The notes under the pieces are model-generated. The model had not been told where the DNA came from, searched no databases, and saw nothing but the letters and a program-made list of their open reading frames with translations. The position numbers and the translations under genes are program-made. Positions 11,766-21,034 of a DNA stretch of 64,000 bases are shown in pieces. Position 1 is the first letter of the stretch. Each line of letters opens with the position of its first letter. The DNA is from Verrucomicrobiota bacterium. Its GTDB lineage: Bacteria; Verrucomicrobiota; Verrucomicrobiia; Chthoniobacterales; Chthoniobacteraceae. The stretch lies in contig JBAWZW010000001.1 in assembly GCA_037142835.1 (NCBI GenBank), forward strand, positions 4,592 through 68,591. Reading direction: 5' to 3'.

Positions 11766-13346
11766 ATGTCCAACGGTCCAACCAACAAAGAAGTCTACCA
11801 TCGTCTGCGTGCCCTACCTTGGGAGAAACTCTGGACTGAGGAGGTCCAAAGATTCACCCAAGCATCTCCACGCGAACGCTTTGAAAACGTGTCGGTTATT
11901 CGTGCCGTAGGCGTAGTCTTTCCCCAGTCTGGCCCCACAGAATTACGGGCGGATGTCCAACTCTGGCTCCGCGAACTCCTCCTAGATCCCGAGGAAAAAA
12001 TTCGCCGCTATGCCATCGCCGCTCTACCCAAGGTCGGAGCGACGGGAACAGACGAAGCAGAATTACTCAAACTTCTCCGCACGACAAAAAATCCTCGCGA
12101 AGAAAAATTTCTCGGCCAAGCCCTCGATAAAATTGGAGGTTCCGCCACCCTAGAAACCCTTGCCGCATCGGGAAAAGGCTCGCCCCAAACCATCCAAAAA
12201 ATTCAAGCCAGCCTCGCCCGAAGAGAAACTCCCAGCACGGTTCGTCTCGATCATCTCCTTCCCGAATCCGAAGCCCAGCGCATCCACCTCCGATGCCGAG
12301 CAGGCCTCGAAGGAATCCTCCGCGCTGAATTAGAAGAACAAGGTAAATTCCGCATCCTCGGTGGAGCGCGGGGACTGGTCGCGATTACCCCCCTCGTGCC
12401 GATCACCCTCGCAGATATTTTCGCTCTTCGATGCTTTGGCACTCTCGGAATCGTCCTGGGCCTCGTCCGAACTCAGCAGGATACCCAGTCCATTGAGTCT
12501 CTCGCCCAGATCATCTCCTCGCCCGCCACCACACGACTTCTCCTCGCTTTAACCGAGGGTTCCCTCCGCTACCGCCTCGATTTTATCGGAAAGGGACACC
12601 AACGGAGCGCCGTCCGCTTAGTCGCCAATCGGGCCTATGCCCTCAGCCAAGCAATTCTCAACGACCCACAAGAAGCCCCTTGGGCGATTGATGTTCACCA
12701 AAATAAATCAGGCGATTCCGTGGAATTGCGCCCGCGCACTTCTCCAGATCCGCGTCACCCCTATCGGCTTGGTGATGTTCCCGCAGCCTCCCACCCTCCA
12801 CTCGCGGCAGCGATGGCTCGCCTCGCTGGGGCGCAAGCACAGGAAAGGATTTGGGACCCGTTTTGTGGCTCAGGATTAGAACTAATCGAACGATCACTGC
12901 AAGGTGGGGTTGAATCGGTCTTTGGAACCGATCGCAACGCCCAGGCTATTGCCATCGCCGAACGCAACTTTGCCGCCGCCACCCTTCCCCAAATCAACGC
13001 CCACTTCATCTGCTCAGACTTTCGTGATTGGGAGAAAATCGCCGGGCTTACCCATCAAAGCATCTCCCTCATCGTGACCAATCCCCCCCTTGGCCGCCGC
13101 GTGCGAGTTCCTCATCTTCGCAGCCTCTTTCATGACCTCTTTTGCGTGGCCGCAGATGTCCTTCGCCCAGGTGGTCGAATGGTCTTAACCAATCCATTTC
13201 AAATGGATAGTCCCACAGATCTACTCCGCCTCCAGTCACGCCAAGTCGTCGACCTCGGTGGTTTTGATTGTCAACTTGAAGTCTACGAAAAAGCTTACCC
13301 TCAAACACCCGATAGCCAGAAACAATCAAACGCTCACCCTCGCTAG
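11766..13346 (+). CDS. HEAT-repeat + THUMP-like + class I SAM RNA methyltransferase
   Basis: DPEEKIRRYAIAAL HEAT-like unit, LRCRAGLEGIL THUMP-like start, WDPFCGSG (motif I) and TNPPLG (motif IV). Confidence 0.75.
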   Translation: MSNGPTNKEVYHRLRALPWEKLWTEEVQRFTQASPRERFENVSVIRAVGVVFPQSGPTELRADVQLWLRELLLDPEEKIRRYAIAALPKVGATGTDEAELLKLLRTTKNPREEKFLGQALDKIGGSATLETLAASGKGSPQTIQKIQASLARRETPSTVRLDHLLPESEAQRIHLRCRAGLEGILRAELEEQGKFRILGGARGLVAITPLVPITLADIFALRCFGTLGIVLGLVRTQQDTQSIESLAQIISSPATTRLLLALTEGSLRYRLDFIGKGHQRSAVRLVANRAYALSQAILNDPQEAPWAIDVHQNKSGDSVELRPRTSPDPRHPYRLGDVPAASHPPLAAAMARLAGAQAQERIWDPFCGSGLELIERSLQGGVESVFGTDRNAQAIAIAERNFAAATLPQINAHFICSDFRDWEKIAGLTHQSISLIVTNPPLGRRVRVPHLRSLFHDLFCVAADVLRPGGRMVLTNPFQMDSPTDLLRLQSRQVVDLGGFDCQLEVYEKAYPQTPDSQKQSNAHPR

Positions 13347-16300
13347 CCACCGAAGGGTTTCGTAGAAAAAGCCTGTCCAACAATCGCCAAAAGTTTTGTG
13401 GGCGTGTACGGCTTCGGCAGATAGTTTGTGCCCTCACGAAGATCCAGACCTCGCCCAGACACCTCCCCAGGATAGCCACTCATAAAGATCACCCGAAGAG
13501 TAGGTTTGGTGGCGAGAAGCTGATCCGCTAACTGCCCACCAGAAACGCTTTCTGGCATCACGACGTCGGTCAAAAGCAAATCCACATTTGCCGCGTGTTC
13601 GGGCCAAAGGATCAGAGCTTCAGCCCCACTCCCCGCCTCGATCACTTGATAACCAAACATCCTCAGCGCCTGGGCAGTGAGCTTCCGCAACGCCAACTCA
13701 TCTTCCACGAGCAAGATGGTCTCCCCAAAACCCGAGCGCTTGTCATTAGCCGCCACTGATGCCGGAGCCACCGAAGCGTCTAATTTTTGGGGAAAATAAG
13801 CATGAAAGGTCGTGCCGACTCCTAGTTGGGTTTCAACCTCAATCCATCCGTGATGTTGCTCAACCACTCCGTAGACCGTTGCCAAGCCTAATCCCGTGCC
13901 TTTACCGATATCTTTCGTCGTAAAAAAAGGCTCAAAAATTCGCTTCACATGCTCTGGCGCGATTCCGCTTCCGTTATCTTGAACGCTCAATCGAATAAAA
14001 TCTCCCATACGGCTAGGGCTTTGCACCGCTTCCGTCTCCAAAATTTTCACCGCCTTTAATGTGAGGGTAATCTCTCCCCCATTCGTCATCGCGTCGCGCG
14101 CATTGACCGCCAAATTGAGAAGCACTTGTTCCACCATTCCTCGATCCGCTTGGATCAGCATACTCTCAGGCAACAACCGCGTCTGAATCGTGACCGCTTC
14201 CGGAATCAGTCGGCGAAGCATTTTCACCATTCCGACCACCACTTCATTCAGATCGATAGACTGAAACCGCAGAGGTTGTTGTCGGCTAAAAGTCAGTAAT
14301 TGCCGGGTCAAATTGCTCGCACGTTCACTCGCCTTGGCAATCTCCTCAAGGAGATGCTGTTGCTGGGGACTGACTTGCCCAAGCTGGAGTAACTCGGTAT
14401 TCCCAAGAATCACCGTGAGCATATTATTAAAATCATGCGCTACCCCGCCCGCTAATTGCCCAAACGCCTCCATCTTTTGCGATTGCCGGAACTTTTCCTC
14501 CAGTTGATGGCGTTCGGTAATGTCTTCCGCCGTTCCAACGACTCGCACCACCTCTCCACTGCTATTCCGAACGGGAAACGCTCGGTCGTGGATCCAACGG
14601 ATTCCCCCGTCTGGGCGGATGATCCGGTAGACAATGTCGTAGTTTCCTTCAGCCTGAGATACCGACGATTGCTTGACCGCTTCCAGGTCCTCGGGATGAA
14701 TCGCCTCCAACCAAGATTGCGGCGAAGCATAGAGACTGGCACAGGTTCGCCCCCAGATTATTTCAAAAGCAGGACTGACATATACCATCTGCTCCTTCGC
14801 CGAATCCGTCACCCAAAAGACTTCCCGAATGTTTTCTGCCAGTTCCCGGAAACGCTCCTCGCTCTCTCTTAAGACTTTCTCCGCAGCCTTGGACTCGGTG
14901 ATATCCCGCATGAATGCGCTAAAGAAAATTTCCCCTCCCGTCTGAACCGGAGTGATGGCCAACTCCACGGGAAACTCCTCCCCACTTTTTCGTAAAGCCG
15001 ATAACTCGAGGCGCTTATTCAAAACCGGTCCGATCCCCGTTGATAAGTAACGTTTCATCCCCTCCGCGTGCCCTCGCCGATACTGCTCTGGAATGATCAA
15101 GTCGGCGAGAGACCGCCCACAGGCCTCACTTTTTTTCCACCCAAAGATGGTCTCCGCTTGCAAATTCCAATTCGTAATCTGACCTCTAATATCCATCCCG
15201 ATCACCGCGTCCAAAGCAGTATCCACGACCGCTTGGTACCGCACGTCGCTCTCGCGCAAAGCACGCTCAGTCATCTTCCGATCGGTAATATCTCGGGTCA
15301 CTCCCACATAGAAAATAATCTGACCGTTTTCATCGTGGAGCAGCGACACACTCAGGTCATTCCAAAAACTTTGCCCGTTCTTTCGATAGTTCAGAATCTC
15401 TCCTGCAAATGGAACCCTAGTTCGAAAAGAATTCCGGAGCGCTTCAATCGTTTCTTGATCGGTCAACGGCCCCTGAAGGAACGCACAGTTGCGCCCCAAA
15501 ACTTCCGCCTCGTCGTAGCCGGTCATCGTGCAAAATGCCGGATTCACCGAGACGATCAGACGATCCGCATTGCAAACTAATACCCCTTGCGAAATCGATC
15601 GCAAAGCCAAGTCGTTCAAGCGCATCGCGGATTCATTTTTCCGCCGTTCGGTAAGATCCGTATTCGTCCCCACCACTCGCACCGCTCGCTTTTGATGATC
15701 CCGAACAATCCAACCCCGTGAGAAAATCGGCACATAGTGACCAGCCCGATGGCGGAGCCGATGCTCAAATTCGTAGCAATTAAGATCGCTAGCTAAAAAC
15801 CCCTTCATTAAGCGACTCACCCGCTCGCGATCATCGGGATGGGTCAGTTCTGACCAAAGATCGGCGGTAACTGTCAGTTGGCCAGGTGCATAGCCGAGCA
15901 TCGAAAACCAGAAGTCCGAATAAAAAACCTCATTTTTAATCAAATCACGATCCCAGACCCCATCCTGAGATGCTTGGATCACCAAATTCAAACGATCCTC
16001 AGACTTTTTTAAACTCATCTCCGCCAGATGCTTGAACTGAGCCATCTCAATGACCGTCTGAAGCTCGCGACCACTAAATGGCTTGAGAACATAGCCATAG
16101 GGCGTGGCTAGCTTGGCACGCGCCAAGGTGTCGGCCTCAGCAAAAGCCGTCAGAAAAACCACCGGCAAACCAAAGCGATTGCGGATTTCCGTAGCGGCCT
16201 CAATCCCATCCATGGATCCCGCTAATTGAATATCCATCAAAATCATGTCGGGTTGCAGTTCTTCCGCGAGAGCGATGGCTTGATCTCCCCGAGTGGCGTG

Positions 16301-16408
16301 ACCCACAGGTAAATATCCGAGCTCAATCAACTGCTGTTGAATATCTCGAGCGACAATCACTTCATCCTCAACGACGAGAATTTTCGGCTTGGAAAGCGAA
16401 GATGGCAT
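13343..16408 (-). CDS. Hybrid sensor kinase REC-PAS-PAS(LOV-like)-PAS(heme-like)-PAS-HisKA-HATPase-REC
   Basis: KILVVEDE...MDIQL (REC1), four PAS/PAC units, [10 protein letters not shown] (H-box), [24 protein letters not shown] and LLTDVVMP (REC2). Confidence 0.93.
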
Positions 16409-16480
16409 AGTCAGCAATTTAAAAAGCTGCGGGAGATTGGCAAGACGCTAAGCGATCGGCAGAAAAAGAAGTTGCCACGC

Positions 16481-19045
16481 TCAATTCTCAATCGGCAAGA
16501 GGGACGTCTCCACTGAAAAAGTCAGGCTAAAAGCAGCTCCCGGACCGGGCTCGATGACCGCCGTCCCACCGAGCTGAAGGGCGAGATCGGAGACCAGTTG
16601 ATGTCCCAATGAATGCCCGCGCTTTTCATCAAAGTCGGCGGGCAGCCCGATCCCGTTGTCCCTAACTCCAATCTGGAACTCTTGGGGATTCTTCCCTTTC
16701 TGCAGGGTGATCCGAACCTCACCTGGCCGATCATTGGGAAAGCCGTGCTTCAGGCAATTCGAGAGCAACTCGTTCATAAATAGCCCGCAGGAAATCGCCT
16801 GATCCATCGGGGCATCAACCGCACACACCTCAAGATGCAATGTCACTCTGCTGGACGAATCCACCAGGCTCCGAAAGGACTCGGTCGCAAGTTTTTTTAA
16901 ATAGTCACCCAAATCCACTTTGGCAAAAGTTCCAGAGCGATATAGCAATTCATGCAAAAGAGACATCGAACGAATCCTTCCCTGCATATCCTGCAAGGCA
17001 ACTTTGGTCTCCAAATTGACACAGCGTCCCGTTTCAAGCCGAAGCAAACTGTAGATGATCTGCAGGTTATTTTTTACCCGATGATGCACCTCTTTGAGAA
17101 GGGCGACCTTGTCCCGTACCGAAGCTTGAAGCTCAAGCTCAGCACGAAGACGACCAGCGAGTTCCTCAGTGAGCTGCTTGTTCGTCCCCGTCAAACTTTG
17201 TCGCGATTGATACAGTCCTTCCCTCGCTCCAGCGAGCCCCTCAGCCGCCCGACCAACCTCCGCTTGCAACCGGTTGAAATTGATCGCCATATCCCCAACT
17301 TCGTCCCTCGAATAAACCTTCACTGGCACGGTATCAAACTCTGCGTGCGCACCATCAAGATCACCCGCCGCCAAGGCCTGCATCGCTTTGGTAAAATCTT
17401 TCAAAGTGCCCGCAACCAGAAGATTCGCCGCCTTCGAAACCTCAACCGCGGAGTGAGCAATCATCCCCGGAAGAATTAACCCCACCGCAATCGTCAAAAG
17501 CGCAACAACCACAAAAATGTCCTGAAGGAGAGAAATCAACGCGCTGTTTTCGGTAGGAACATTGCCCACCGCGATCAGATAACCGCCAGCGTCGAGCACC
17601 AGAACCAAAAGCATCGCCCCCGTGAGCTTCAGGTGGAGGGTTCGGGCGATTCCCGGCAACCCCGCTTTCCTCCGATCCATAAACTTCCGCCAAGCGTAAA
17701 GCGCTGCCCCAGAGTACGCAAAAGAGATGCCAATCAGCACCGTCGTTAAACCAAACTGCTCGAAGCCGAGGATGGCCGTCAAACCCCACGCACCCGCCGC
17801 AAGCAGTCCCAGCCAGATCGTCCCCCGCGGCGCACGATAAGGGCGCGCAAGGGTGGGTTCGTTGCGGCGCAGGAGCCAGACCGCCACGCTCGGAAGGGCG
17901 ATCCCGATTAGGTAGGTCAGATTGGCTGCGGCGATCAGCCAGATGGGATTGCCAATCCACAAAAAGACGATTGCCATCACCCCAGTGGAGACGGTGGCGA
18001 CCCACGGGGCATCCGTCTTCGACCGCTTCGCCAGCGACTCGGGAAGTAACCCATCCTCAGCAAGCTGCGCAAGGGTTCTCGCCGCTCCAGCCAAGGGCGC
18101 CAAACAACCGTGGAGCATGTTAAAGATCATGAACCACGCCGCCGCCGCCTTCGCCGAAGCCCCAAAAAGCGGAGCGAAAGTGGGCCCAAGGACGTCGGCA
18201 AGATCTTTGCCAAGTTCCTCAGGTCCAAGTGCACCCAGCCAAATAATCGGCAGAATGATAAAATAGAGCGAAGCCAGACCAGCACTCGCAAAAACCGCGC
18301 GCGGAACATTCCGGTTGGGATCGATGGTTTCACCAACATGCGAAGTGGCCTGCTCAAAGGCGGGTGCCGCGAAGCCAATCAAATAGAGCCCAGCCATCAC
18401 GCTGGTGACTTGGCCAAACCAACCAGGAAAGGGCACGGTCAAATGAAAGCTAAAGGCCTGATGCCAATCCACCAAACCATTGGTCATCGGAAGAATCGCC
18501 GAGCAAAAAGCCAGCGCAGCCGCCGCCGTCGCCACGGGCATCGCAAGGCGCATCACCCATTTGACCCCGCATAAATTAACCGCCGCAAAAAGAATCACGA
18601 TCCCCGAAGCCAACACCTTCGGTGCGTAATCAGGCATGACTGGCAGGCACCAGTTAATCAACGCCGTCGAGGCCAGAGTCGCAGTCAACCCACACGTTGG
18701 CACCCATCCCCACCAATAACAAACCCCCGTCAGGTTCGCCAAAACTGGACTGTAAGGACGAAAAGCCTCCGCACATGTCGCGGCAATTCCCCCAACCCGG
18801 TTGGGATACATCAAAATCAGTTCCGTCCATCCTGGCGTCGCCGCCCAACTCAAAAGCAACCCAATCGCCAAGAGGACCACCGCAGCACTCCCTTGTCCCG
18901 GAATCGCCCCTTGCCCGATAAAAAGTGCCCCGATCAGAAAGAGACTTTGATTGATTCCCCCCATCGCCACCGCCGTGGTTCCAAACCACCCAATTGTTCG
19001 AGGATGAAGCAACGATGGGGCGGTGGAGGCGGAAGATGATTGCAT
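16481..19045 (-). CDS. APC-family amino-acid permease fused to HAMP + HisKA_2 + HATPase_c kinase
   Basis: About 450 aa of polytopic APC-like sequence (AFEQATSHVGETIDPNRNVPRA, RTLAQLAEDGLLP, RPYRAP), two more TMs, HAMP (DEVGDMAINFNRL), EVHHRVKNNLQII, NELLSNCLKHG, DNGIGLP and SLG. One uninterrupted ORF. Confidence 0.9.
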   Translation of the reverse strand: MQSSSASTAPSLLHPRTIGWFGTTAVAMGGINQSLFLIGALFIGQGAIPGQGSAAVVLLAIGLLLSWAATPGWTELILMYPNRVGGIAATCAEAFRPYSPVLANLTGVCYWWGWVPTCGLTATLASTALINWCLPVMPDYAPKVLASGIVILFAAVNLCGVKWVMRLAMPVATAAAALAFCSAILPMTNGLVDWHQAFSFHLTVPFPGWFGQVTSVMAGLYLIGFAAPAFEQATSHVGETIDPNRNVPRAVFASAGLASLYFIILPIIWLGALGPEELGKDLADVLGPTFAPLFGASAKAAAAWFMIFNMLHGCLAPLAGAARTLAQLAEDGLLPESLAKRSKTDAPWVATVSTGVMAIVFLWIGNPIWLIAAANLTYLIGIALPSVAVWLLRRNEPTLARPYRAPRGTIWLGLLAAGAWGLTAILGFEQFGLTTVLIGISFAYSGAALYAWRKFMDRRKAGLPGIARTLHLKLTGAMLLVLVLDAGGYLIAVGNVPTENSALISLLQDIFVVVALLTIAVGLILPGMIAHSAVEVSKAANLLVAGTLKDFTKAMQALAAGDLDGAHAEFDTVPVKVYSRDEVGDMAINFNRLQAEVGRAAEGLAGAREGLYQSRQSLTGTNKQLTEELAGRLRAELELQASVRDKVALLKEVHHRVKNNLQIIYSLLRLETGRCVNLETKVALQDMQGRIRSMSLLHELLYRSGTFAKVDLGDYLKKLATESFRSLVDSSSRVTLHLEVCAVDAPMDQAISCGLFMNELLSNCLKHGFPNDRPGEVRITLQKGKNPQEFQIGVRDNGIGLPADFDEKRGHSLGHQLVSDLALQLGGTAVIEPGPGAAFSLTFSVETSLLPIEN

Positions 19046-19243: not shown

Positions 19244-19369
19244 CTTTCATCAAGAGTGACCGAGGGACTGGCCCAGTGAAGTCACGGCAACCGCCTAATG
19301 CGTAAGCGTTAGGGACCAGGTGCCAAATCCAGCCGCAAACGCGCAAGCGCCCGCGGAAAAGATGAGAAG
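19244..19369 (+). promoter_or_regulatory. SAM-I (S-box) riboswitch aptamer
   Basis: ctttcATCAAGAGtgaccGAGGGACTGGCCCagtGAAgtcacGGCAACC...GGTGCCAAATCC...GAAAAGATGAgaag matches the SAM-I consensus, with P1 tttcatc/gatgaga. Confidence 0.93.
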
Positions 19370-19397
19370 AGATTTTCGAAAACCATCGAAAATCTTT
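19370..19397 (+). terminator. Expression-platform hairpin after the SAM-I aptamer
   Basis: AGATTTTCGA-aaacca-TCGAAAATCT followed by TT; the U-tract is weak. Confidence 0.5.
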
Positions 19398-19448
19398 GTC
19401 CTCGTCGCCATGCAATCGCTCAGATTCTTGATGAAAACATCACGACTT

Positions 19449-20708
19449 ATGGACAAAACATCGCCCTTCTTCATCAATCTCAAATGCCGCGAATGCGGCC
19501 GAACTTATCCAAAGCAAGCCATTCATGTCTGCGACTTCGACTTCGGCCCCCTCGAAGCCGCCTACGACTACGATGCCATTCGATCCGTACTCACTCGCGC
19601 AGTCATCGAAAGTCGCCCACAAACCATGTGGCGCTATCGCGAACTTCTCCCCATCGATGGCGAACCCACCGTCGGCACCCAAGTCGGCTTCACCCCCTTG
19701 GTCAAAGCAGATCGTTTAGCCAAAGCCCTCGGCATTCGCGAACTCTATGTCAAAAATGACACCGTAAACTACCCCACCCTTTCCTTTAAAGATCGGGTCG
19801 TTTCCGTCGCCCTCAGCCGAGCTTGCGAACTCGGATTCAAAGTAGTCGCCTGCGCCTCCACCGGAAACCTCGCCAACTCCGTCGCCGCCAACGCCGCCAG
19901 CGCAGGCTTAAAAAGCTATGTCCTCATCCCCGCCGATCTCGAACAAGGCAAAGTCCTCGGCTCGCTCGTCTACGGAACCAACGTCATCTCCATTCACGGT
20001 GCCTACGACCAAGTCAACCGCCTCTGCTCAGAAATCGCGGGAAAATATGGCTGGGGCTTCGTCAATATCAATCTCCGCCCTTATTATGCCGAAGGCTCAA
20101 AATCCATGGGCTACGAAATCTGTGAGCAACTCGGCTGGCGCATCCCCACCCACACCGTCGCCCCAATGGCCTCTGGCTCTTTACTCACCAAAATCCACAA
20201 AGCCTATGGCGAATTCGCGCGCCTCGGCTTAGTCGAAAATACCCCTTTCTCCGTCTATGGTGCCCAAGCAACCGGTTGCGCTCCCATCGCCCACGCCATG
20301 AAGCTCGGAACCGATATCGTCAAACCTGTGCCCAAACCCGAAACCATCGTAAAATCCCTCGCCATCGGCACGCCCGCCGACGGCTATTATGCGATCCACG
20401 CCATGCGCCAGACCTCAGGCACCGCAGAAGATTGCACCGACGAAGAGGTCGTCGAGGGCATCCGCCTGCTCGCCGAATGCGAAGGCATTTTCTCAGAAAC
20501 TGCCGGCGGTGTCACCGTCTCCTGCGCGAAAAAATTGATCGAAACTGGAAAAATTCCCCGCGATGGCAGCGCCGTTCTCTGCATCACAGGCCACGGACTA
20601 AAAACCCAAGAAGCGATTATCGGAAAGTGTGGAACGCCTCGCATCATCAAGCCCAGCCTCCGAGAATTTGAGGAGCAAGTTTATCATAAAGACTCCGTCC
20701 TCGCTTGA
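19449..20708 (+). CDS. Threonine-synthase-like PLP enzyme, probably MetM-type O-phosphohomoserine sulfhydrylase
   Basis: N-terminal CxxC (CRECG), PTLSFKDR PLP-lysine motif, ASTGN, EGSK and ETAGG. SAM riboswitch upstream and sulfur carrier downstream. Alternative start at 19431. Confidence 0.85.
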   Translation: MDKTSPFFINLKCRECGRTYPKQAIHVCDFDFGPLEAAYDYDAIRSVLTRAVIESRPQTMWRYRELLPIDGEPTVGTQVGFTPLVKADRLAKALGIRELYVKNDTVNYPTLSFKDRVVSVALSRACELGFKVVACASTGNLANSVAANAASAGLKSYVLIPADLEQGKVLGSLVYGTNVISIHGAYDQVNRLCSEIAGKYGWGFVNINLRPYYAEGSKSMGYEICEQLGWRIPTHTVAPMASGSLLTKIHKAYGEFARLGLVENTPFSVYGAQATGCAPIAHAMKLGTDIVKPVPKPETIVKSLAIGTPADGYYAIHAMRQTSGTAEDCTDEEVVEGIRLLAECEGIFSETAGGVTVSCAKKLIETGKIPRDGSAVLCITGHGLKTQEAIIGKCGTPRIIKPSLREFEEQVYHKDSVLA

Positions 20709-20761
20709 CCCTTTCCTCACACCCGAGTCAAATCCCTGCCCCTTCACTCTCCATCATCCCA

Positions 20762-21034
20762 ATGCCTACCGTCCTCATTCCTACTCCACTCCGCAGGCTA
20801 ACCAATGACCTCGAAGAGGTCAGCGCCGCGGGAGCCGATATCGGCACCTTAATCGATAACCTCGATAAAGCCTTCCCCGGATTAAAAGATCGCGTCTGCG
20901 ATGAATCGGGAAATGTTCGCCGCTTCGTTAATATCTACGTCAACGGGGAAGACATTCGCTTTTTGCAAGAGAAAGCCACCCCCGTCAACGAAAACGACGA
21001 AATCAGCATCGTTCCCGCCATCGCCGGAGGCTAA
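20762..21034 (+). CDS. ThiS/MoaD-family ubiquitin-like sulfur carrier
   Basis: VLIPTPLRRLT, RRFVNIYVNGEDIRF and C-terminal IVPAIAGG. Confidence 0.93.
   Translation: MPTVLIPTPLRRLTNDLEEVSAAGADIGTLIDNLDKAFPGLKDRVCDESGNVRRFVNIYVNGEDIRFLQEKATPVNENDEISIVPAIAGG

Follow-up and report, generated by a model that had tools for sequence, protein, structure and literature searches.

Two sensor kinase genes lie side by side in a stretch of 64,000 nucleotides (nt) from a freshwater Verrucomicrobiota genome (contig JBAWZW010000001.1; this whole stretch is the window, and all positions are counted along it). They raise the question of whether the two products work in one pathway and, if so, which receiver (REC) domain the first of them serves. 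The upstream gene, K1, encodes a histidine kinase (HK) with a permease fold at its N-terminus. The downstream gene, K2, encodes a hybrid kinase that begins and ends with a receiver, REC1 and REC2, respectively. Comparison with related loci leads us to a two-tier cascade in which K1 would act on Asp59 of REC1; we regard this as the best-supported wiring and give it a probability of roughly 0.65. The pair is maintained across many phyla, which makes it most likely that the kinases form a two-step cascade, familiar in its general type but with a new kind of input. The two genes and their signaling domains are the following.

16481 to 19045, minus strand: K1, permease-fold sensor histidine kinase of 854 residues (open reading frame, translation, Pfam/NCBIfam)
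16868 to 17092, minus strand: K1 HisKA_2 DHp domain, residues 652-726, H-box EVHHRVKNN with His654/His655 (PF07568)
16511 to 16777, minus strand: K1 HATPase_c catalytic domain, residues 757-845 (Pfam, 38 bits)
16409 to 16480, minus strand: intergenic spacer between K1 and K2, 72 nt (sequence)
13343 to 16408, minus strand: K2, REC-PAS x4-HisKA-HATPase-REC hybrid kinase of 1021 residues from the ATG at 16408 (open reading frame, Pfam/NCBIfam)
16049 to 16381, minus strand: K2 REC1, residues 10-120 (Pfam Response_reg 13-123), with Asp59, Thr87, and Lys109 (Pfam)
14276 to 14458, minus strand: K2 HisKA DHp domain, residues 651-711 (Pfam 654-714), with His658 in VAHDFNN (Pfam HisKA)
13784 to 14143, minus strand: K2 HATPase_c, residues 756-875 (Pfam)
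13373 to 13723, minus strand: K2 REC2, residues 896-1012, with Asp948 (second Pfam Response_reg stretch, taken as the C-terminal receiver)

K1 and K2 are co-oriented minus-strand open reading frames that together fill window positions 13343-19045. K1 ends with a TGA stop codon (16483-16481), and the start residues of the two proteins are matched by orthologs of 854 and 1021 residues, those of K2 being 89-95% identical to it. An alternative K2 start, a TTG at 16417, would lengthen the protein by three codons. The domain order of K1 is AA_permease_2, two extra transmembrane (TM) helices, HAMP, HisKA_2, and HATPase_c, and neither Pfam nor NCBIfam detects a receiver domain in it. HisKA_2 scores 88.1 bits (PF07568, cut-off 22.3), and its H-box is invariant in an alignment of 20 homologs. 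With this DHp domain, an H-R-x-x-N H-box, and HATPase_c, K1 belongs to the HWE/HisKA_2 kinases, which are defined by that H-box (PMC5898713). The best NCBIfam match of the kinase core is PhyK (95.8 bits), and K1 is the sole HisKA_2 kinase of this 95.7%-complete genome.

The catalytic residues of both K2 receivers are intact in the numbering from the ATG: Asp14/Glu15, Asp59, Thr87, and Lys109 in REC1, and Asp948, Ser977, and Lys999 in REC2, where the acidic pocket is also kept. Searched alone against NCBIfam, REC1 is matched best by the PhyR-family receiver (99 bits; next family 64), whereas the best match of REC2 is to the CckA receiver, with 94.5 bits as against 37 for the PhyR model. The kinase core is CckA-like (413 bits in NCBIfam), and K2 has the N-terminal receiver that marks two-tiered REC-HK kinases of the ExsG, PakF, and LvrB type. 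Orthology to CckA was rejected, as 413 bits compare with an NCBIfam equivalog cut-off of 1000 and the likeness is limited to the core and the receiver. FixL (223 bits versus a cut-off of 850) and, on curated cut-offs, YtvA and LOV-HK were rejected as orthologs as well. The first-pass annotation had described two co-oriented genes 72 nt apart, an APC permease-HAMP-HisKA_2 kinase lacking a receiver and a kinase with an intact receiver, four PAS domains (one LOV-like and one FixL-like), HisKA, and a second receiver. The sequence, Pfam/NCBIfam, and phmmer bear out each of these points.

The argument that the genes function together comes from the neighborhoods of their relatives. A REC-first PAS-HisKA-HATPase-REC gene lies directly downstream in 6/6 contexts of HisKA_2-type permease kinases, all of which have different flanks. 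A script run over 100 loci returned 16 distinct HisKA_2-type permease-kinase loci with enough downstream DNA (L020 included), distributed over Verrucomicrobiota, Planctomycetota, and Burkholderiales, and a REC-first hybrid kinase follows directly in all 16. The pair that the first-pass annotation suggested looking for in other genomes is thus conserved at every such locus, in several phyla. Gaps between the genes of orthologous pairs range from −4 to +64 nt with frequent 4-nt overlaps, so that many pairs are probably translationally coupled.

The same association appears when the search begins from the receiver. REC1-like matches in genus-mates are sharply bimodal, with scores of 109-141 bits and then 60 or less; the nearest REC1 paralog in the K1/K2 genome itself scores 38 bits. 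All 16 strong matches fall in clusters with a HisKA_2 kinase, whose gene they follow directly in 15 cases. Tier-2 genes of the form REC-(PAS)-HisKA-HATPase-REC, about 505-684 residues long, are found in 10/10 genus-mate cassettes, and in the six of these cassettes run through Pfam the tier-1 sensors are CHASE2 (three), MASE1-CHASE, a PAS array, and REC-PAS. On this comparison the coupling is tied to the HisKA_2 kinase core, not to the permease sensor. A wider search with the REC1 region gave 1823 proteins, and REC1 is 60-73% identical to the N-termini of hybrid kinases, HisKA_3 kinases, and GGDEF-EAL proteins. In the reverse test, four distant REC1-type proteins (from Rhodoferax, Roseateles albus, and two metagenomic contigs) each have a HisKA_2 kinase immediately upstream, and their outputs are GGDEF-EAL, a HisKA_3 kinase, HK-REC-HPt, and GAF-HK. 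The adjacency counts of 16/16, 16/16, and 4/4 thus supply the genetically linked upstream kinase that characterizes two-tiered HK to REC-HK pathways. Judged from these neighborhoods, the conserved unit is any sensor joined to HisKA_2, followed by a protein with REC1, zero to five PAS/GAF domains, and an output; the permease, LOV, and heme-PAS domains are interchangeable add-ons.

Two variations on this theme were encountered among the relatives. At locus L104 (G021:C40:69000-79500) two tandem HisKA_2 kinases, one of them REC-PAS-HisKA_2, lie ahead of a single REC-PAS-HisKA-HATPase-REC gene, behind which comes a KaiC-like double ATPase gene; in this arrangement a tier-2 kinase may receive input from more than one tier-1 kinase. 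Separately, a group of proteins of ~710-780 residues (P0128, P0131, P0132, P0137, P0138, P0141, and P0146-P0148), one of which is named from Methanobacterium sp., combine a family-2 glycosyltransferase domain with a receiver that shares 46-51% identity with REC1.

Which receiver K1 serves is a separate matter. HWE/HisKA_2 kinases are the established phosphoryl donors of PhyR (PMC5898713). A PhyK-like core in K1, a PhyR-like REC1, and a CckA-like REC2, taken with the adjacency, make REC1 the likeliest acceptor. The first-pass annotation had K1 phosphorylating REC1, with amino-acid availability, blue light or flavin state, and O2 converging on one output. Adjacency and family matching uphold the functional pair and the choice of REC1 as the likeliest acceptor, but not the stimuli as named. 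A mirror-tree test on 20 distinct cassettes agrees with this choice: Spearman correlations of the K1 core are 0.79 with REC1, 0.31 with REC2, and 0.45 with the K2 core. The partial correlation of the K1 core with REC1 given REC2 is 0.87, that with REC2 given REC1 is −0.15, and the K2 core and REC2 given REC1 yield 0.74.

The scheme that we propose runs as follows. In the first tier, the 12-TM APC/LeuT-fold domain of K1 would bind, and possibly transport, a small solute, and the resulting conformational change would be relayed through the two extra TM helices and HAMP to the PhyK-like HisKA_2 core. K1 would then phosphorylate or dephosphorylate Asp59 of REC1, a step that we infer from the conserved adjacency and the family matching. 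In the second tier, the phosphorylation state of REC1 and the PAS array would together gate the CckA-like HisKA-HATPase core of K2; within this array, in the K2 lineage, the LOV-like domain may bind flavin and the FixL-like domain may bind heme. The K2 core would phosphorylate its own C-terminal receiver at Asp948, and the signal would leave REC2 by a route encoded away from the locus.

Several observations weigh against this scheme. The evidence for the cascade is entirely comparative. Nearly every cassette contains REC2 as well as REC1, and adjacency by itself therefore cannot decide between them. The mirror-tree contrast shrinks in the APC-only and non-APC subsets (0.88, compared with 0.85-0.87 when the K2 core is used and 0.62-0.72 with REC2), and the test is confounded, the K1 core and REC1 being neighbors on the DNA; for both reasons we count it as minor support. 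A promoter scan of the 72-nt spacer gives a weak promoter-like match, with a result not better than shuffled sequence. As for the output, no conserved third gene follows the tier-2 kinases in the 10 genus-mate cassettes, a ChpT-like protein (HPTransfase) was not found in the genome, and the single HPt domain of the genome belongs to a different hybrid kinase, encoded on contig C24.

The presence of REC2 in almost all cassettes lends some weight to a different phosphoryl flow between the same partners, in which K1 would serve REC2 or an unlinked response regulator and REC1 would be fed by the K2 core as feedback, by acetyl phosphate, or by some other kinase; acetyl phosphate has been proposed as an alternative donor for LvrB (PMC5863495). 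We nevertheless consider this unlikely. REC2 resembles the CckA receiver and covaries with the K2 core rather than with K1. A REC1 protein with no kinase core and a single receiver, the REC-PAS-GGDEF-EAL protein of locus L114, retains its HisKA_2 neighbor, and the kinase core of ExsG does not phosphorylate its own receiver (PMC3899027).

Where the cascade would lead after REC2 can be glimpsed in relatives, some of which have an HPt domain fused to the tier-2 kinase. Locus L115 of Roseateles albus (JAQQXT010000010.1) is a nine-gene signaling cluster in the order HK, REC, REC-HisKA_2, PAS-HisKA_2, REC-PAS-HisKA-HATPase-REC-HPt, REC-HisKA_3, REC-GerE, REC, and REC-PAS-GGDEF-EAL. The cluster may be a relay of several tiers, with a DNA-binding regulator and a cyclic di-GMP (c-di-GMP) enzyme at its end. 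Its continuation to REC-HisKA_3 and REC-GerE hints that such cassettes can belong to longer relays.

What the pair might sense depends on the membrane module of K1 and on the PAS array of K2. Taken literally, the inputs named in the first-pass annotation make a three-signal model in which K2 would collect information on external amino acids from K1, on blue light from its LOV domain, and on O2 from its heme-PAS domain. We hold this model to be doubtful, for reasons that differ from domain to domain. The membrane module comprises three parts.

17666 to 18994, minus strand: K1 APC/LeuT-fold 12-TM permease-like domain, residues 18-460 (AA_permease_2 at 18-416, AlphaFold2, Foldseek)
17426 to 17650, minus strand: two extra TM helices of K1, residues 466-540, linking the permease domain to HAMP (AlphaFold2, hydropathy)
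17258 to 17404, minus strand: K1 HAMP domain, residues 548-596 (Pfam, 28.2 bits versus a cut-off of 25)

The N-terminus of K1 matches AA_permease_2 with 109 bits (PF13520, Pfam). A first AlphaFold2 model of full-length K1, built on a 20-sequence alignment, gave a predicted local distance difference test score (pLDDT) below 50 in the membrane part and was replaced by a model of the sensor module (residues 1-610) built on 77 sequences, which has a pLDDT of 85 and a predicted TM-score of 0.82. The latter model contains 12 helices, with TM1 broken at about residue 36 and TM6 at about residue 227. Twelve TM helices in a LeuT fold, of which TM1 and TM6 are discontinuous, are the mark of the APC superfamily. 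The extra helices that lead into HAMP span residues 470-494 and 501-559 in the model, and their hydropathy maxima fall at 476-494 and 511-529. Foldseek matches the 12-TM part to y+LAT1, LAT1, AdiC, BasC, GkApcT, and ApcT with target-normalized TM-scores of 0.74-0.81.

The K1 fold is therefore that of amino-acid and polyamine transporters, which speaks for the amino-acid part of the three-signal model. Sequence identity to the solved amino-acid transporters (APC/SLC7) is, however, only 14-21%, and the best curated family of the permease domain is the trimethylamine N-oxide (TMAO) permease, at 110 bits far under the cut-off of 690. On these grounds we do not retain amino acids as the K1 input. 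All-against-all clustering of 760 flanking open reading frames from ~85 loci gave generic ABC ATPases and small receivers; it returned no clue to a ligand or regulon and no conserved metabolic neighbor of the permease-kinase loci. The label of an "amino-acid transceptor" is therefore an assumption. Residues around the breaks in TM1 and TM6, Asn32, Gln33, Ser34, Glu231, and His236 among them, show no variation in the 77 sequences, and mean pairwise identity across phyla is 82% in the permease part as compared with 47% in the ATPase domain. This strong conservation of the permease module argues for one conserved ligand site.

The permease-2TM-HAMP family forms at least 262 clusters at 50% identity (E ≤ 1e-30) and is present in at least 447 species-representative genomes of Verrucomicrobiota, Planctomycetota, Beta-, Gamma-, and Alphaproteobacteria, Acidobacteriota, Actinomycetota, Gloeobacterales, and Omnitrophota; the species that carry permease-sensor kinases are mostly from freshwater and soil. 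The fusion partner of the module is variously a HisKA_2 kinase, a PAS-HisKA hybrid kinase (in some cases with an added HPt), or GGDEF-EAL. Two carriers that can be cultivated, Verrucomicrobia bacterium IMCC26134 (L058) and Undibacterium arcticum KCTC 42986 (L091), both have fused variants. In genus- and order-mates of the K1/K2 genome (L003-L011; G002, G007, G010-G014, G017, and G039) an orthologous sensor, 61-71% identical, is fused straight to PAS-HisKA-HATPase-REC in proteins of 1050-1500 residues from which the HisKA_2 core is absent. Because the genus-mates carry this fused version, the split two-gene form appears atypical for the genus, and its closest HisKA_2-type relatives occur in other lineages, which suggests that domains were swapped or that the two-gene unit was transferred.

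The other two proposed inputs fall to the PAS array of K2, which has four members.

15632 to 16012, minus strand: K2 PAS1, residues 133-259 (TIGR00229 stretch; limits from our own domain split)
15281 to 15589, minus strand: K2 LOV-like PAS2, residues 274-376, with Cys308 in GRNCAFLQG and Thr371 replacing the Iβ Gln (phmmer against the PDB)
14900 to 15241, minus strand: K2 FixL-like PAS3, residues 390-503, with candidate proximal His447 (phmmer against the PDB)
14528 to 14851, minus strand: K2 PAS4, residues 520-627 (best PAS_3 stretch 545-630)

Four TIGR00229 sensory-box stretches are detected, the top-scoring one at residues 388-515, and PAS_3 also matches; PAS1 is recovered by phmmer in the L013 ortholog. 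The best PDB match of PAS2 is CagFbFP (6rhg, E = 8e-30, phmmer), the LOV domain of a Chloroflexus multi-sensor hybrid kinase. PAS2 has an adduct cysteine, Cys308, in GRNCAFLQG, its version of the GXNCRFLQ motif. Both Asn residues and the second Arg of the flavin pocket are kept, whereas the Arg after the Cys is replaced by Ala and the Iβ Gln by Thr. Natural Gln-less LOV receptors are known, Thr variants included, and at least one of them works (PMC9098866), which favors a photoreceptor role. Against it, the motif NCAFLQG occurs in three of the four close K2 orthologs and is lost in the fourth (P0125/L013, GCA_016463145.1; 89% identity). The latter reads GRSFGFLHG, with Phe in place of Cys, but retains the heme-PAS His, and the adjoining kinase is 93% identical to K1. 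Among the 120 best REC1-type proteins, four have a Cys-containing LOV motif. Blue-light sensing by PAS2 is plausible on this evidence, at less than even odds.

PAS3 matches FixL-type heme domains (1d06, E = 6e-19; 8js5, E = 1e-18; phmmer). His447 aligns with the FixL proximal His, is conserved in all four close K2 orthologs, and is accompanied by equivalents of Arg206 and Tyr207, in keeping with an O2 sensor. The FG-loop arrangement of FixL, with the distal Arg220 and the propionate ligand His214, is not reproduced, however: an ungapped HMMER alignment puts Pro at the position of His214 and the Arg one position before Arg220. Residue numbers are those of BjFixL, in which the proximal His is His200. 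O2 sensing by PAS3 can likewise be called plausible, yet short of probable. The four-PAS layout is common to K2 and a 73%-identity relative (L021), and most other tier-2 relatives contain one or two unrelated PAS or GAF domains. By this comparison, the LOV-like and heme-PAS domains are lineage-specific insertions, and REC1, the kinase core, and REC2 are the conserved cassette parts. The light and O2 inputs of the first-pass annotation are possible, but the two domains assigned to them are not fixed components of the system.

Returning to the contact between K1 and REC1, the two kinases could form a heteromeric complex or scaffold in which REC1 is a docking or dimerization module and there is no His-to-Asp transfer. 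This is a general possibility, as the sequence data fit docking and transfer alike, but the phosphorylation residues of REC1 (Asp14/Glu15, Asp59, Thr87, and Lys109) are all kept in orthologs with 32-95% overall identity and the HisKA_2 H-box is invariant, which renders docking alone improbable. That K1 and K2 are independent sensors sharing a transcript, as the 72-nt spacer with its weak promoter-like match and the unrelated flanking genes might suggest, is strongly disfavored. The adjacency is strict and reciprocal (16/16, 16/16, and 4/4), and it holds across phyla although the flanks differ, often with the two genes overlapping by 4 nt. Moreover, no other receiver lies near K1, and the genome encodes no second kinase of the K1 family. 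The two-tier cascade through REC1 is accordingly the reading carried forward here.

The spacer contains no terminator-like site, and its RNA folding is not above that of shuffled sequence. On one side the pair is flanked by ComEC and a methyltransferase on the opposite strand. On the other side are a PALP enzyme with a ThiS-like protein, QueC, and a radical-SAM enzyme (probably QueE), also on the opposite strand. The first-pass annotation had also taken these genes to be unrelated. No further receivers or kinases were detected on the whole contig. The gene for the pyridoxal phosphate-dependent PALP enzyme (462 residues) overlaps that of the ThiS-family sulfur carrier by 4 nt (19320-21034, plus strand); the two are divergent from K1, with a 274-nt spacer between, and resemble sulfur-carrier-dependent cysteine, homocysteine, or threonine-synthase-like systems. 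Over window positions 1-64000 the plus-strand GC skew is negative throughout (−0.05 to −0.41 per 4-kb window), independently of gene orientation, and far exceeds the usual bacterial replication skew.

Transporter-fold sensors are regarded as rare, CbrA and the Amt-type receptors being the examples. Our literature searches found no description of an APC-permease/kinase fusion. Within that limited literature, an APC-fold sensor on a kinase appears to be undescribed, as does a strict cassette of HisKA_2 kinase and PhyR-type receiver on a hybrid kinase outside Alphaproteobacteria, and the combination of that cassette with LOV-like and FixL-like PAS domains also appears to be new. We put forward as a tentative proposal, somewhat below an even chance, that two things hold jointly: the permease-2TM-HAMP module would be a new class of bacterial membrane receptor for one solute, and HisKA_2 plus the PhyR-type receiver would be a universal "plug" outside Alphaproteobacteria. 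If this is true, the module would be the first prokaryotic APC-fold sensor, driving HisKA_2 kinases, hybrid kinases, or c-di-GMP enzymes, and a complete APC fold would serve as the input of a kinase family in hundreds of species. The plug would link any membrane sensor to a PAS-gated second-tier enzyme. A testable specificity rule emerges from the comparisons, namely that non-alphaproteobacterial HisKA_2 cores would be hard-wired to a PhyR-like receiver on PAS-containing kinases or c-di-GMP enzymes. Cytoplasmic flavin or light, heme or gas, or redox cues would gate an extracellular solute signal within the kinase cascade, making K1/K2 a natural system that merges external solute with internal light, gas, or redox signals ahead of any transcription factor. 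The few experimentally known kinase-to-kinase cascades (ExsG, PakF, and LvrB) would also be extended to a widespread design.

These cascades show that the first-pass annotation went too far in stating that no described system has this wiring, as transfer from a histidine kinase to the N-terminal receiver of a second one is known (PMC3899027, PMC5863495). The closest parallel is BphP1-ExsG-ExsF of Rhizobium NT-26/Agrobacterium, in which a clustered sensor kinase also targets the N-terminal receiver of a second kinase and controls its autokinase: BphP1 phosphorylates Asp62 of ExsG, inhibiting the ExsG kinase, which phosphorylates ExsF (PMC3899027). The families are swapped between the tiers. BphP1 is a phytochrome histidine kinase and ExsG an HWE kinase, whereas K1 is the HisKA_2 member and K2 a CckA-like hybrid. 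ExsG also lacks a PAS array, unlike K2 with its PAS domains and C-terminal receiver, and the input of BphP1 is a phytochrome where that of K1 is a permease fold.

KipF-PakF-PhyR of Sphingomonas melonis is likewise a two-tiered HK to REC-HK pathway (PMC5863495), and PakF is a HisKA_2 member in tier 2, whereas in K1/K2 the HisKA_2 member is tier 1. Transfer from LvrA to LvrB of Leptospira was shown in vitro, and the two genes are juxtaposed in an operon that has no DNA-binding output (PMC5863495). Neither KipF-PakF nor LvrA-LvrB is known to possess a sensor of transporter fold or, in tier 2, LOV and heme-PAS domains, in contrast to K1/K2. The PhyR receiver, which REC1 of K2 resembles, is served by the Paks, a group of HWE/HisKA_2 kinases (PMC5898713). 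PAS3 and PAS2 of K2, for their part, align with the sensor domains of FixL and LOV histidine kinases, with key pocket residues altered.

On the sensor side, Ks-Amt5 (Amt-histidine kinase) and Sd-Amt1 (Amt-HAMP-GGDEF) provide precedents for a transporter fold acting as a receptor (PMC5764959, PMC11152129). Sd-Amt1 is like K1 in coupling a transporter fold through HAMP to a cytoplasmic enzyme, and the Amt receptors share with the K1 sensor the joining of one membrane module to various outputs; they differ in having the Amt/Rh fold and ammonium as the ligand, where the K1 sensor has the APC fold. CbrA, a LeuT-fold transporter fused to a histidine kinase, binds and transports histidine (PMC13022988). 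Like K1, CbrA and CrbS combine a whole LeuT-fold transporter domain and a histidine kinase in one polypeptide. K1 was rejected as a CbrA-type SLC5-STAC kinase, since Pfam finds neither SSF nor STAC in it, though the two are functionally alike. CbrA is built from a 13-TM SLC5/SSS domain, a STAC coupler, and HisKA, and K1 from a 12+2-TM APC/AA_permease_2 domain, whose two extra TM helices and HAMP act as the link, and HisKA_2. Finally, CbrA signals to the DNA-binding CbrB, whereas the proposed partner of K1 is a second kinase.

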